This document shows positions 14,593-31,222 of a stretch of 64,000 nt of DNA, piece after piece. A program made the position numbers and the translations under genes. Every line of letters starts with the position of its first letter. Position 1 is the stretch's first letter. The notes under the pieces are model-generated. The model did not search any database. It saw nothing but the letters and a program-made list of their open reading frames with translations, and was not told the origin of the DNA. This DNA is from an uncultured Pseudomonadota bacterium (lineage in GTDB: Bacteria > Oederibacteriota > Muellerivitia > Muellerivitales > Muellerivitaceae), in the NCBI GenBank assembly GCA_963843375.1, contig CAWJKT010000006.1, forward strand, positions 32,001 to 96,000, given 5' to 3'.

Positions 14593-14622
14593 TTGTCCGC
14601 GACGGGTCCCCGTCGTGGACAA
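14593..14622 (+). repeat. Cassette site 2
   Basis: TTGTCCGCGACGGGTCCCCGTCGTGGACAA. Confidence 0.95.
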
Positions 14623-14701
14623 CCCATTACCTAACCCCCGAATTCCCCGGTGTTGAATTCCTGTGAAGCACAGGGGGAAGTCCGGGCCCCTAGATTATAC
14701 T

Positions 14702-15229
14702 TTAAGGGCTTTTTCGTGAATTCCTGGCACTCCGCCTATTTCCCTTTGGCCTTGACCCCATGTTTTTAATCCACCAATACTCATATTGATTAATGATTAT
14801 TTCTCGTCTTTTTAAATGAGAATCAGCAAGTTTTTGAAACGAGATATTTTCAATTTCCCCTTGGGTTAAGTTCATATTTTCATTCGATTTAAAATCATCT
14901 AACGTTCCAAACTGTTTATTAGTAATCTCCGATAATGCAAAGAATGCCGCAACCCGAATACTTGCTTTTGAATTGGACAAATATTTAATTAAATAAGAAA
15001 CCGCATCTTTTCCCATCTCAATCACATCTTTATATTCTTTTGGCTCAGAAATTATTGCCAAAGACATACGATTATCAATCCAATATTTGCCAAAACTCTG
15101 TACATTTTCGTTCGTAAAGTTTTCTATCTGAACTGGTACTTTTGTTTCGGCCAAACAAACTAATACGGATAGCAATGCACTGCCCCAGATAAAAATCTTT
15201 GAGAAAAAAATGAATTTCTTATTCGTCAT
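14702..15229 (-). CDS. Hypothetical exported protein with a HEAT-like repeat
   Basis: AT-rich ORF, N-terminal hydrophobic segment, MGKDAVSYLIKYL...IRVAAFFALSEI HEAT-like motif. Confidence 0.6.
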   Translation of the reverse strand: MTNKKFIFFSKIFIWGSALLSVLVCLAETKVPVQIENFTNENVQSFGKYWIDNRMSLAIISEPKEYKDVIEMGKDAVSYLIKYLSNSKASIRVAAFFALSEITNKQFGTLDDFKSNENMNLTQGEIENISFQKLADSHLKRREIIINQYEYWWIKNMGSRPKGNRRSARNSRKSP

Positions 15230-15246
15230 TTATTCTTTCTAATCCT

Positions 15247-15276
15247 TTGTCCAATCCGGGCCCCCGTCGTGGACAA
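15247..15276 (+). repeat. Cassette site 3
   Basis: TTGTCCAATCCGGGCCCCCGTCGTGGACAA (centre T>C). Confidence 0.9.
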
Positions 15277-15288
15277 CGCTTTTTCGTC

Positions 15289-15558
15289 TTATTCAAATAA
15301 ATCTGAATGTGTTCCGGTTCTTTCAAAAATGATTTCATTTGCAGAAAGCTTGTAAATCAAAAGCCAATCTGGTTCCAAATGGCATTCCCAGCGGTCCTTG
15401 TAATTCCCCGAAAGTTTATGATTCCGTAATCGAGCGTCCAAGACACTCTGAGCGATTAACCGATTGGCGACTTCCTTGAACTTTTCAACCGGTTTACCGC
15501 GCCGAAGCATCAACTTGAGGTCTTTTTGAAATTGATTGGTATAGGAAGGATTGAGCAT
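15289..15558 (-). CDS. yafQ: YafQ-family mRNA interferase toxin
   Basis: FQKDLK...HKLSGNY...ECHLEPDWLLIY...RTGTHSDLF. Confidence 0.9.
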   Translation of the reverse strand: MLNPSYTNQFQKDLKLMLRRGKPVEKFKEVANRLIAQSVLDARLRNHKLSGNYKDRWECHLEPDWLLIYKLSANEIIFERTGTHSDLFE

Positions 15559-15818
15559 CAGATGCCGAGTTTACGGAACATGTCCTCAGCATTCTTGGTT
15601 CGAACCAGATGTCGCCCTTTATCCGTGGACTTGAAAACGGCCTTCGTTTTCGCGTTCGGCAGGGCGACTTCAAAAGGAAGCCCGCGCCTCAAGAGGATTT
15701 GACTATAAAAAATGGAAATGGCCTGGCTGGCCGTAAGCCCCAGTTGATGCAACAATTTTTCTGTATCTGCTTTCAAATGCGGTTCCAACCGCGCACGGAC
15801 CGTCGCTTCTTTTGCCAT
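15558..15818 (-). CDS. dinJ: RelB/DinJ-family antitoxin
   Basis: VRARL...LGLTASQAI...GLPFEV..PN; stop overlaps the toxin start. Confidence 0.88.
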   Translation of the reverse strand: MAKEATVRARLEPHLKADTEKLLHQLGLTASQAISIFYSQILLRRGLPFEVALPNAKTKAVFKSTDKGRHLVRTKNAEDMFRKLGI

Positions 15819-15845
15819 GTTGCCCCCCTTTAAGAACTAGTGCAA

Positions 15846-15867
15846 ATGTAGCACAGATGGGCTACAT
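15846..15867. promoter_or_regulatory. Palindromic operator upstream of dinJ-yafQ
   Basis: ATGTAGC-N8-GCTACAT inverted repeat just upstream of the antitoxin start. Confidence 0.55.
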
Positions 15868-15882
15868 ATTCAAGCTACTTGT

Positions 15883-15912
15883 CTGTCCAATGCGGGTCCC
15901 CGTCGTGGACAC
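15883..15912 (+). repeat. Cassette site 4
   Basis: CTGTCCAATGCGGGTCCCCGTCGTGGACAC. Confidence 0.9.
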
Positions 15913-15968
15913 CTTAAACCCTAAATAAACTCTATTTTACTCTTTTTGTCGGGAAGACGGCAGAACAC

Positions 15969-28579: not shown

Positions 28580-28601
28580 GAGTATCTCCTTTTTTATTCG
28601 A

Positions 28602-29594
28602 TCAGCGTCCTACGAGTTTCAAAAGAGCTTCCGGATAGCGTTCCCCTTCCAATTTGATCTCCGAGGCGGCGCGGGTAAGGTCAGCCAGTTCGTCGGCGGA
28701 AAGCTGGAGCGTGACCGCCCCCAGGTTTTCCTCCAACCGTGAAAGCTTGGTGGTTCCCGGGATCGGCACGATCCAAGGCTTTTGGGCCAGAAGCCAGGCC
28801 AATGCCACCTGGGCGGGCGTGGCCTTTTTCGCCGCCGCCACTTTGGTCAAAAGATCGACAATGGTTTGGTTTGTCTTACGGTTCTCAGGCGAAAAGCGTG
28901 GAACGATATTGCGGAAATCGTCCTTAGTAAACTGGGTCTTGTCGTCGATCTTGCCCGTCAGAAAGCCTTTGCCGAGGGGGCTAAAGGGCACGAACCCGAT
29001 CCCAAGTTCCTCTAAAGTCAGCAAGATATCTTCTTCCGGTTGACGCCAAAAGAGGGAGTATTCGCTTTGAAGGGCCGTGACCGGCTGGACGGCATGCGCC
29101 CGGCGAATGGTCTTGGCACTGGCTTCCGACATCCCGAAGTGCTTGACCTTGCCTTCGCGGATGAGGTCCTTAACTGCCGCGGCCGTTTCCTCAATGGGCA
29201 CATCCAGATCGACCCGATGCTGATAGAAGAGGTCGATGGCCTCCACCCGAAGCCGCTTGAGGGATGCCTCGGCGACAGTCTTGATATGTTCAGGCTTGCT
29301 GTTCACCCCTTCCCCACGACTGCCATCGGGGTTGACGTTGAACCCAAACTTAGTGGCGATGACCACCTTGCCCTTATAGGGCTCCAGTGCCTCGCCTACC
29401 AGCTCTTCGTTGACGAGAGGACCATATATCTCGGCGGTGTCGAAGAAGGTGACGCCTAGATCAACCGCCTTGTGGATGAGCGTGATCATTTCTTGTTTGT
29501 CCGCTGGCGGACCGTAGGACTGGCTCATCCCCATACAGCCCAACCCCAGGGCCGAAACTTCCAAACTGCTTTTACCTAATTTGCGTTTTTGCAT
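28602..29594 (-). CDS. Aldo/keto reductase
   Basis: [38 protein letters not shown]. Confidence 0.92.
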
Positions 29595-29823
29595 TGTTGC
29601 CTCCTGTTGAACGATTAGCATCGCTTACAGGAGGGATAATAAGAAAGGGGGTGGCAAATCATTTGCCTAATCCTACGAATGTTTGACCTAATACACCGGA
29701 AAGCTGTTGTTTTTATGGAGAGTGAAAGATTCGGGATATTTACGGCTTTTAGGAGGCGAGCAACGGCTGGGATGAACAATTAATGTATAAACTATTGGCC
29801 CGGACCCTTTGTTTCATTTTTCT

Positions 29824-29853
29824 TTGTCCACGATGGGTCCCCGTCGTAAACAA
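29824..29853 (+). repeat. Cassette site 13
   Basis: TTGTCCACGATGGGTCCCCGTCGTAAACAA. Confidence 0.9.
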
Positions 29854-29857
29854 CCTA

Positions 29858-30286
29858 TTAAAATTTTTTATATAAAAAATAACGTTTGCTTCCCTTTGGA
29901 AAAGATTTTAAAGAACCAAATTTTTTAAATCCCATCTTCCGGTAAAATTCCGGGGCTTGGAAATCGAAAGTATCCAAATGGACATACCGGCACCCTCTTT
30001 TCCGCGCAATGGCTTGCGCCTTTTGGAGCAATTGGGTGCCTAATCCCTGGTTCCGGTTCTTTTCATTTACCCAGAGGGTCTTCACGAAAAGCCATCCCCA
30101 ATAGGTCCCGCTGACCAGCCCGCCCACTATTTTACCCTTGGGGTCGACGGCTTTCAGGTCCAGGTCCCGCCAATCGAGTCGACCAATATATTTCCTGTTA
30201 TAGGAATTGAGTTCCCGGCCAACGAAGTCCCTGAACCTCTTGTTAGGCGAGTTTACGGTTTTAATGGAGCCTGAAGCTTTTATCAT
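29858..30286 (-). CDS. GNAT-family N-acetyltransferase
   Basis: LWV..K.RNQGLG..LL, LDTFDFQAPEFY.K.GF. Confidence 0.9.
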   Translation of the reverse strand: MIKASGSIKTVNSPNKRFRDFVGRELNSYNRKYIGRLDWRDLDLKAVDPKGKIVGGLVSGTYWGWLFVKTLWVNEKNRNQGLGTQLLQKAQAIARKRGCRYVHLDTFDFQAPEFYRKMGFKKFGSLKSFPKGSKRYFLYKKF

Positions 30287-30331
30287 GCCAACTCCTTTAC
30301 GTCATAAAAAATAGTCATCGCCAAAAAATGG

Positions 30332-30361
30332 TTGTCCACGACGGGTCCCCGTCGTGGACAG
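30332..30361 (+). repeat. Cassette site 14
   Basis: TTGTCCACGACGGGTCCCCGTCGTGGACAG. Confidence 0.95.
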
Positions 30362-30379
30362 CTAAAATTCAATAAATAA

Positions 30380-31171
30380 TCAGGGCGGACTTGGTATTGA
30401 ATCCGAAGATTTCTCTGTTTCTTTTTTTAACCTTTGTTGCTTTTGATATTTAGAAAGATAGTTTTTATCGTACCAATCTTCCAATAACTTATTCCGGGGA
30501 TTATTGGGTCTTAAAAGCTCGTCAACTAAATCTTCGATATAGGGTACTGTGATCCCTTTCCCCATTCTTCCTATCAACTGTTCATCCTCATAGGGCAAAT
30601 TTAATCTTTTGCAATTAGGAATCCAGACTTCTTGAAAAAATTCATGGGCTTCTTGAATTGTGTCGTTTTCAATAACGCTATGCTCGATAACAAAAGCCTG
30701 GCGGTTAATCAGGCCCTTTTCTGCCTTATCATCAATTTTTAAAGACCGTTTTGAATTTTGAACATTAAAGAGTTCATAAAAAGCAGAAAACCAAAGCATA
30801 GGTCCACTTTTGGGTTCACCTTTATGATAGTTTTCCTGGGTAAAATTTTTAGTGACTTTAATCACTGCAAGCTTATGATTTTCATAGTCCGGCCCGGCCG
30901 AAACCGCATCCCATAAAGGTTCTGGATCACTAGGGTCCCATTGAACTTCACCCATACCGGCTTCTCCCGCAAATTGCCTAAGGGTCCAATTCCAAAGATC
31001 ATCCCCTTCTTTCACGTAAGGCGCCATGGCGGGCCGGTCATGGAGCATCTGTCGAAGCTGGGTCTCGCCCCAAGCCATCTGATCTTTGGTTAATGAAACC
31101 GGCTGATCTTGAGCTTTTATCGAAGTTCCAGAAATAAGGAAAATAATAAAAGCCACCAATAGCTTTTTCAC
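30380..31171 (-). CDS. Secreted hypothetical protein
   Basis: GTG start with AAGGA RBS and signal peptide; no recognised domain. Confidence 0.65.
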   Translation of the reverse strand: MKKLLVAFIIFLISGTSIKAQDQPVSLTKDQMAWGETQLRQMLHDRPAMAPYVKEGDDLWNWTLRQFAGEAGMGEVQWDPSDPEPLWDAVSAGPDYENHKLAVIKVTKNFTQENYHKGEPKSGPMLWFSAFYELFNVQNSKRSLKIDDKAEKGLINRQAFVIEHSVIENDTIQEAHEFFQEVWIPNCKRLNLPYEDEQLIGRMGKGITVPYIEDLVDELLRPNNPRNKLLEDWYDKNYLSKYQKQQRLKKETEKSSDSIPSPP

Positions 31172-31192
31172 ACTAATTTCCTTTCAAAATAG

Positions 31193-31222
31193 CTGTCCAC
31201 GACGGGTCCCCGTCGTGGACAA
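31193..31222 (+). repeat. Cassette site 15
   Basis: CTGTCCACGACGGGTCCCCGTCGTGGACAA; 1 bp from the stop codon at 31224. Confidence 0.95.

Follow-up and report, generated by a model that had tools for sequence, protein, structure and literature searches.

Arrays of a directly repeated 28-base near-palindrome in one family of candidate phylum FCPU426 look like an undescribed cousin of integrons

What is the function of a 28-base near-palindrome that recurs, always in one orientation, between successive gene cassettes of a bacterial chromosome? The question is raised by the stretch of DNA analyzed here (the window; 64,000 nucleotides, G000:C6:32001-96000), which comes from an uncultured soil and peat phylum, the candidate phylum FCPU426. 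The genome, G000, measures 4.05 Mb and is 80% complete. The textbook device for storing and reshuffling individual genes in bacteria is the integron, which works through folded attC hairpins and a special integrase. The 28-base near-palindrome arrays look like an undescribed cousin of integrons. We consider it probable, on balance, that they form a double-stranded recombination system of the lox/dif type, in which direct-repeat sites bound mobile cassettes and a probable tyrosine enzyme acts in trans.

Conservation and arm pairing of the site

The consensus of the site, TGTCCACGACGGGTCCCCGTCGTGGACA, was matched at 10 places in the window with up to three mismatches (13 if both strands of the palindrome are counted), compared with none in 100 shuffles. 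Its core, GGGTCCCC, was present 14 times, all on the + strand; the shuffles contained 5.9 on average and 13 at most. The full listing comprises 15 full and two degenerate copies in a single orientation, spanning 13564-33408. A preliminary description of this DNA, made from the letters of the window, had located the array at 14593-31222; this range lies inside the array, whose true extent is wider on both flanks, with one site earlier and two later. The direct-repeat arrangement claimed in the same description holds well beyond the window: among 275 copies from eight genomes, 270 share the orientation of their own array.

In a logo of 58 copies from G000, conservation was confined to positions 0-30, and the flanks beyond were unconserved. 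The information content was ~1.4-1.9 bits at positions 1-6, 11-18, and 21-28, 0.9-1.4 bits at positions 19-20, and lowest (0.6-0.9 bits) at positions 7-10 in the left mid-arm. As the scan for these copies presupposed a near-intact core, the count was redone on sites picked by their outer arms alone; the core was then exactly GGGTCCCC in 23 of 35 copies in G000 and in 106 of 130 in other genomes. In the logo, the core and the outer TGTCCA/TGGACA are the best conserved parts, as first described. The central TC is kept in 262 of the 275 copies, and the left arm is much freer than the right. Two left-arm classes had been distinguished in the window. The CAAT class occurs exactly at the sites given then (sites 3, 4, 6, and 12, at 15248, 15884, 19050, and 25704), but more than two classes exist family-wide, the 275 copies being divided into CACGAN (127), CAATNN (52), CACTNN (35), TGTTCCTTY (5), and others (56).

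Arm pairing was analyzed with the same 275 copies. The mutual information of all 13 arm pairs was within the range of 300 shuffles, and strong compensatory covariation, which the preliminary description had named, together with RNA 3′ ends at the sites, as the sign of a role in RNA structure, did not appear. For pair 8-21, 137 copies had the consensus pair, 3 a G-U pair, 11 a compensated pair, and 124 a broken one; the corresponding numbers for pair 9-20 were 135, 19, 9, and 112. All four mid-arm pairs were Watson-Crick in just 46 copies, and at least one mid-arm mismatch was present in the other 229, so the early impression that mid-arm variation is mostly uncompensated was correct. As single-stranded DNA, the perfect consensus folds with -14.9 kcal/mol (z -6), and copies of the CAAT and CACCC classes fold with -5.9 to -7.3 kcal/mol (z -1.3 to -2.1), values that do not stand out clearly from those of shuffles. 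The palindrome is not maintained as a helix, because the arm pairs do not covary, departures from the consensus mostly break the pair, and the CAAT and CACCC copies fold poorly. The arms behave like half sites that are conserved independently of each other, not like a selected hairpin. The absence of a U-tract was also borne out, with no T-run on the sense side of the flank logo. Only two sites (three strand readings) passed a permissive terminator scan, whose terminator-like total of 22 was below the shuffle mean of 28.5, and neither result fits an intrinsic terminator. A comparison with Rfam gave no match to the site.

These results bear on an alternative in which the site is a hairpin in RNA or DNA, like a repetitive extragenic palindrome (REP), that serves as a 3′ stabilizer, an attenuator, or a protein-binding palindrome, and in which cassette turnover is a by-product of ordinary or microhomology recombination with no dedicated recombinase. 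The site does lie a median of 22 nt past the previous stop codon, the consensus folds strongly, and a dedicated enzyme was not found in the searches of genomes and metagenome neighborhoods described below. Yet the mid-arm mismatches are uncompensated, there is neither a U-tract nor an Rfam match, and the copies form one-way arrays rather than a scatter in both orientations. The exact site sequence is, moreover, kept across at least 16 genera, which points to protein recognition. REP elements and the mosaic elements built from them (BIME) resemble the site as short, GC-rich extragenic palindromes with many copies placed just after genes. The FCPU426 copies differ from them in that they are clustered in unidirectional arrays bounding exchangeable cassettes and their pairing is not maintained; in G000 (80% complete), no RAYT (PF01797) match was found. 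With the core-located junctions and terminal half sites described in the next section also counting against it, a hairpin of this kind seems rather unlikely.

Cassette boundaries and a natural recombinant junction

A comparison of 209 inter-site interiors gave 55 homologous pairs. G001 and G021, members of different genera, share an 800-bp cassette at 99.6% identity; the syntenic core DNA of G000 and G001, which belong to the same genus, is ~78-84% identical. Duplicate cassettes with 100% identity were found in two arrays within G001 and likewise within G012. Duplicates inside one genome were too few for boundary mapping. Cassettes of the window were located at other loci in G001, and two toxin-antitoxin (TA) cassettes of the window are present there free of sites, with the homology ending at the site edges. 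At the left boundaries of all 34 pairs compared, the outer flank was at random identity (0.15-0.40) and the interior side was homologous. The right boundaries of 25 pairs showed the reverse pattern.

The boundaries fall inside the site. The per-position concordance agrees with this, if in a blurred way. In the left-boundary pairs, it was at background through position 10 and above it from position 19. For the right-boundary pairs, the values were far above background in the left flank, still modestly so at positions 7-9, and no different from background at position 10 and beyond. The right arm travels with the cassette to its right, and the 99.6%-identical pair has the different left arms CACGAC and CAATCC. 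In the informative boundary cases, the left arm stays with the cassette to its left: an odd left arm, TTGGCGCGCC (G012 and G001), is retained in three copies whose right arms and right neighbors diverge from position 19 on. Array-terminal sites consist of the core and right arm only, as in the first site of G001:C5:251k. Such terminal half sites would be expected to remain where a circle had inserted at a weak target.

A natural recombinant junction was present in metagenomes. Logan contigs of four public metagenome DNA runs from three studies were aligned to positions 13450-33440 of the window, and the joint 24298>22291, which goes back 2008, was found in all four runs. Its sides measure 228-255 nt, and nine letters, GGGTCCCCG, are common to the partners. 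The partner sites read AGTCCACGAA-GGGTCCCCG-TCGTGGACA and TGTCCACCCT-GGGTCCCCG-CCGTGGACA, and the hybrid site consists of the left arm of the site at 24289 and the right arm of the site at 22281. Because the joint keeps the left arm of one site and the right arm of the other, the crossover lies within positions 11-19, that is, within the nine shared letters. The hybrid 28-mer is not in the G000 assembly, and the joint is probably real DNA, since the sequence common to the two sites is much shorter than an assembler word. A contig of run X2 joins 22309 to 24282 across 367 other letters, with three cassettes replaced by a different one, and many contigs depart from the reference precisely at site edges (15246/15277, 19075, 22309, 22978, 24782/24814, and 30333/30363). 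Joints with sides of just 31-32 nt (19082>22281, 30363>31192, 30360>22951, and 31223>24783) rest on the repeat itself and were not counted. Identities of 9 to 28 bp are very short for RecA-driven exchange, which counts against cassette turnover as a by-product of ordinary recombination at a hairpin.

Four independent lines of evidence support a recombinase site with exchange in its conserved asymmetric center. The double-stranded site put forward in the preliminary description agrees with the lack of covariation, the boundaries inside the site, the terminal half sites, and the hybrid site that crosses in GGGTCCCCG; the serine-recombinase version of that proposal is disfavored. Here, we propose a mechanism in which the site would function as a duplex, in the manner of lox, FRT, or dif. 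Two inverted arms, predicted to bind the recombinase through the outer TGTCCA/TGGACA and to tolerate changes in the mid-arm, would flank the core GGGTCCCC. The core, asymmetric at its central TC, would be the place of strand exchange and would give the site its direction. The sites of any one array all point the same way, so a crossover between two of them would excise or re-insert the intervening cassettes, and each cassette would carry half a site at either end, a right half at one and a left half at the other. An enzyme encoded away from the arrays would act in trans, and the candidate is the Xer-like protein encoded at G000:C10:182366-183469. We infer the double-stranded catalysis, the circular intermediates, and the class and identity of the enzyme.

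Search for the recombinase and relation to dif

The tyrosine recombinases of G000 amount to 14 PF00589 matches. Six integrase paralogues of ~370 aa share 58-66% mutual identity (C6:226038, C8:84965, C8:179354, C9:31181, C11:49933, and C11:206672). Several copies of such integrases are present in each of 20 of the 24 family genomes. They occur also beyond the family and often lie ~1 kb from contig ends; a repeated sequence probably stands beside these genes. The ~370-aa integrases were rejected as the array enzyme, as they generally do not adjoin arrays and are distributed beyond the family. G001 (99% complete) has eight PF00589 genes, of which six belong to the 370-aa family, one is the Xer-like gene, and one is an unclassified gene of 432 aa. 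A 516-aa open reading frame (ORF) at C18:60917-62467 was rejected because of its location in high-GC, foreign-looking DNA. Just past the C18 array of G000, at 59800-66000, the DNA becomes very GC-rich, its ORFs are arginine-rich, and the tail of an integrase is present; this segment may be foreign, mis-binned, or chimeric. Three tandem tyrosine recombinase genes (431, 340, and 423 aa) are present at G000:C8:95063-98359, a layout that we take to be that of a recombinase-in-trio element.

A serine recombinase was considered as the alternative enzyme class. The site would then have 13/14-bp arms, and cleavage at the central TC would excise and integrate the cassettes. A 13-2-13 parse with a nonpalindromic center is indeed possible, with TC kept as noted above, and a 281-aa serine recombinase (PF00239 + PF07508) is encoded at the left end of arrays in G000 (C9:137160-138005), G001 (C2:163827-164639), and G022 (C61:35509-36306), which represent two genera. 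The outer-arm motif presumably resembles resolvase sites, a likeness for which a search found nothing. However, the 281-aa protein corresponds to large serine recombinases of ~510 aa that have been cut short, in all three genomes, at about residue 275, right at the start of the array; in G001, 35 bp separate its stop codon from the first site. Homologues of the array-adjacent gene are present in just 7 of the 24 family genomes, and PF00239 was not found in four of five site-rich genomes, namely G010 (99% complete, 31 sites), G005, G021, and G023 (31-40 sites each). In 448 kb around the sites of 146 metagenome loci, one serine-recombinase fragment was the only hit, and 13 tyrosine recombinase queries from G000 had no homologue there. 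The 281-aa protein was rejected as the array enzyme, being truncated, not family-wide, and of a domain lacking in most site-rich genomes searched. Its gene, apparently cut by the array, looks like a casualty of the array and not the source of its enzyme. Between this gene and the array, G000 also encodes the reverse transcriptase of a group II intron (C9:135607-136983). A serine-recombinase crossover site is thus distinctly unlikely. The preliminary description had offered an 11-6-11 and a 14-2-14 core site: the PF00239 result disfavors the latter, and the former can stand as a reading of the architecture only, the 28 bp being divisible into two 11-bp arms and a 6-bp center as in Xer/dif sites.

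Because no recombinase adjoins the arrays and PF00239 is missing from the four site-rich genomes, a tyrosine enzyme acting in trans is favored, and the predicted enzyme of the site is most likely of this kind. The best candidate, on the lineage match only, would be the divergent Xer-like protein of the family. In G000, it has 367 aa, and its full-length alignments to the models of XerC, XerD, and XerA score 134-153 bits and stay below the cut-offs (for XerC, 153 bits versus 335). Orthologues with 55-79% identity are present in 23 of the 24 family genomes and in the sister family. The other families of the phylum gave 26-35% matches only and mostly have two canonical XerC/D-type genes of ~300 aa. 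With the XerD model, G029 and G036 have two genes each at 295-341 bits, whereas G001, G003, and G010 have a single gene at 138-155 bits; an XerC/XerD pair was not found in these three 99%-complete family genomes. The pattern looks like a lineage-wide change of the chromosome-dimer system in the family and its sister family. The Xer-like protein is proposed as the candidate because the lineage that swapped XerC/XerD for one divergent Xer carries the sites, and a single recombinase fits because the site arms are symmetric.

The relation of the site to dif was analyzed by GC skew and synteny. On contig C1 of G001, the skew switches at ~357-367 kb, and the first site (370995) is 4-14 kb away. The synteny between G001:C1 and G000:C10 ends at 367.2 kb (C10:147.07 kb), and in both genomes an array with differing cassettes starts a few kb beyond. 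At G001:C1:368632-370986, a 784-aa protein with a ParB-like N-terminal region (read by eye) is encoded, ending 9 bp before a site whose left arm is canonical and whose right arm is degenerate; the flanks of other arrays encode two homologues of this protein. The contig skew of G000 was uninformative for the terminus. A skew peak near 12 kb of the window was rejected as a terminus since it is not a contig-scale switch, and a palindrome at C10:178888, near the Xer-like gene, was rejected as dif since it is conserved only within the genus. No synteny was found between the terminus region of G001 and the array of G003. Xer sites have an ATAA and a TTAT motif flanking the central region, according to a report on Acinetobacter (PMC11705084).

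Several observations weigh against the double-stranded recombination system proposed here. The depth at the junction equals that of the chromosome flanks, which indicates a rearranged order in natural populations and not ongoing excision; the joint 24298>22291 may be a stable alternative cassette order, and Logan contigs can reveal neither circles nor rare forms. The left mid-arm follows the left cassette only modestly (concordance 0.42-0.68 versus a background of 0.44-0.53) and one 99.6%-identical pair differs at position 19, so the cleavage points can be placed only approximately. The strong fold of the perfect consensus (-14.9 kcal/mol) and its placement just after stop codons leave room for an additional RNA or single-strand role, which the site may have. 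As the array of G003 and the lone site of G025 lie in uniformly negative skew and not at a switch, a relation of the site to dif is no more than possible; the site also has no ATAA/TTAT motif, the positions beside the center reading ...CGACG / CGTCG.... As to the enzyme, no site was found within 1.5 kb of the Xer-like gene in 12 genomes and no enzyme is positionally linked to the sites. The lineage match is weak evidence because it is a single evolutionary coincidence.

Array layout, distribution, and known systems

The coordinates of the sites in the window are listed in Table 1. The cargo on the - strand comprises ADH_zinc_N, YafQ/RelB, PIN (two), GNAT (two), aldo-keto reductases, AraC, CMD, an F420-type oxidoreductase, PhyH, NHL and LRR proteins, and several family-less genes. 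The exceptions on the + strand are a Gp49/HTH pair (16091-16605) and a rve-family insertion sequence (IS) transposase. The transposase gene (HTH_38 + rve; 16843-17742, +) is inserted within the array beside the Gp49/HTH pair. Between the sites of 51 loci in eight genomes, 326 ORFs run opposite to the GGGTCCCC reading and 72 run with it, and the distance from a site to the next start codon has a median of 65 nt and a mode of 20-50 nt. An isolated piece of right arm, CGTGGACA, is present at 13503-13512, between the helicase gene and the array and 50 bp before the degenerate terminal site. Just outside the array, at 7453-11182 (-), are GH12 and GH44 glycoside hydrolase genes; the GH12 protein has a C-terminal FlgD_ig-type domain, of the kind serving as a secretion tag in related phyla.

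Table 1. Sites and cassette genes of the array, in window coordinates
Feature	Position	Strand	Remarks
Degenerate terminal site	13564..13591	+	6 mismatches; core and part of right arm retained; array left end, 108 bp past DEAD-box helicase gene
Site 2	14594..14621	+	1 mismatch
Site 3	15248..15275	+	CAATCC left arm; core GGGCCCCC
Site 4	15884..15911	+	CAATGC left arm
Site 5	16654..16681	+	9 mismatches; TGTTCCTTCT left arm, third recurrent class
Site 6	19050..19077	+	CAATCC left arm
Site 7	22281..22308	+	right arm is partner of site 10 in recombinant junction (metagenome contigs)
Site 8	22951..22978	+	
Site 9	23467..23494	+	
Site 10	24289..24316	+	left arm is partner of site 7 in recombinant junction (metagenome contigs)
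Site 11	24785..24812	+	exact consensus
Site 12	25704..25731	+	ACAATCC left arm; core GAGTCCCC
Site 13	29825..29852	+	left boundary of GNAT cassette also present in G001
Site 14	30333..30360	+	exact consensus
Site 15	31194..31221	+	exact consensus
Degenerate site	31980..32007	+	shortened left arm; intact right arm
Core with weak right arm	33381..33408	+	left arm absent; possible array right end beside solute-binding-protein gene
Cassette genes	13593..31706	-	nearly all opposite to GGGTCCCC reading

G000 has ~60-70 copies in ~7 arrays, with uniform orientation inside each array, and G001 (5 contigs) has ~11 arrays. With up to one mismatch in the right half, the site was found in 21 of the 24 family genomes at 2 to 98 copies each. 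Outside the family, 2 of 16 genomes gave matches, one copy each: G025 (exact) and G033 (1 mismatch). Among the genomes compared, the system appears to be confined to one family of FCPU426. The site is also present in at least 153 metagenome contigs. Viral contigs gave no site matches, and the site was not found in a plasmid collection, the matches there being fragments of aldo-keto-reductase genes only. A loose-pattern scan of genome contigs was left out of the counts, as it mixed chance matches in high-GC genomes with true FCPU426 arrays.

The layout is reminiscent of integrons and of CALINs (attC clusters without an integrase), which raises the alternative that the site is an integron-type attC, recombined as a folded single strand by an IntI-like integrase, and that the arrays are CALINs. 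Like these, the FCPU426 arrays are long and co-oriented, with mostly one- or two-gene cassettes and a site between every two of them. The cassettes, mostly without evident promoters, carry TA pairs, acetyltransferases, and small unknown genes, and they are shared across taxa. Many arrays have no integrase nearby, as in CALINs, and the consensus folds well. On the other side, an attC is 57-141 bp long, has R″-L″...L′-R′ boxes, and is conserved in structure rather than sequence, whereas the present site is a sequence-conserved element of 28-30 bp with nothing conserved beyond and no covariation. Crossover in integrons occurs at the outer R′ box, so nearly the whole site leaves with one cassette; here it is central (positions 11-19), and the arms go with different cassettes, giving two half sites per cassette. 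The integron integrase was not found in G000 (80% complete), where the best score with TIGR02249 was 47.5 bits against a cut-off of 265, and none of the many arrays per genome has an attI/intI platform. An attC identity is therefore very improbable.

A double-stranded site of the kind favored here has closer parallels in loxP/Cre and FRT/Flp, where 13-bp inverted arms surround an asymmetric, strictly conserved spacer that fixes polarity, and direct repeats lead to excision and integration. The FCPU426 site shares the inverted arms and the asymmetric conserved core. It differs in its arms of 10-11 bp, in its genome-wide use for cassettes, and in that the enzyme is known as a candidate only. The pdif/dif modules of Acinetobacter, as described in one report (PMC11705084), are similar in their 28-bp site readable as 11-6-11, in modules with adaptive genes or TA pairs, in the greater variability of one arm, and in a host-encoded recombinase acting in trans, which is proposed here. 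The same report states that the modules are mostly flanked by inverted sites or by sites with unlike centers, that deletion was not seen, and that direct repeats with a shared center are the arrangement permitting excision (PMC11705084). The FCPU426 sites, in contrast to the modules so described, are direct repeats with an identical center and without ATAA/TTAT. Their arrays are chromosomal, with up to ~18 sites, and their genomes have one divergent Xer-like protein instead of an XerC/XerD pair. In the literature, at the level of listings and abstracts, no description of such arrays was found.

IntegronFinder-type annotation tools would overlook these arrays, in which a short, lox-like site that probably acts as a duplex gives rise to an integron-like genome architecture although no integrase is encoded nearby. 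A further idea, which we offer tentatively and regard as doubtful, is that the family lost XerC/XerD and that one divergent Xer serves both chromosome maintenance and a genome-wide exchange of cassettes between genera, making the arrays a third independent cassette platform beside integrons and the Acinetobacter dif modules. Should a host Xer-type enzyme drive the system, the 28-bp site and its enzyme would be a compact pair for DNA engineering. The family would then have taken a second route from chromosome-dimer resolution to gene capture, which would bear on the origins of integrons.

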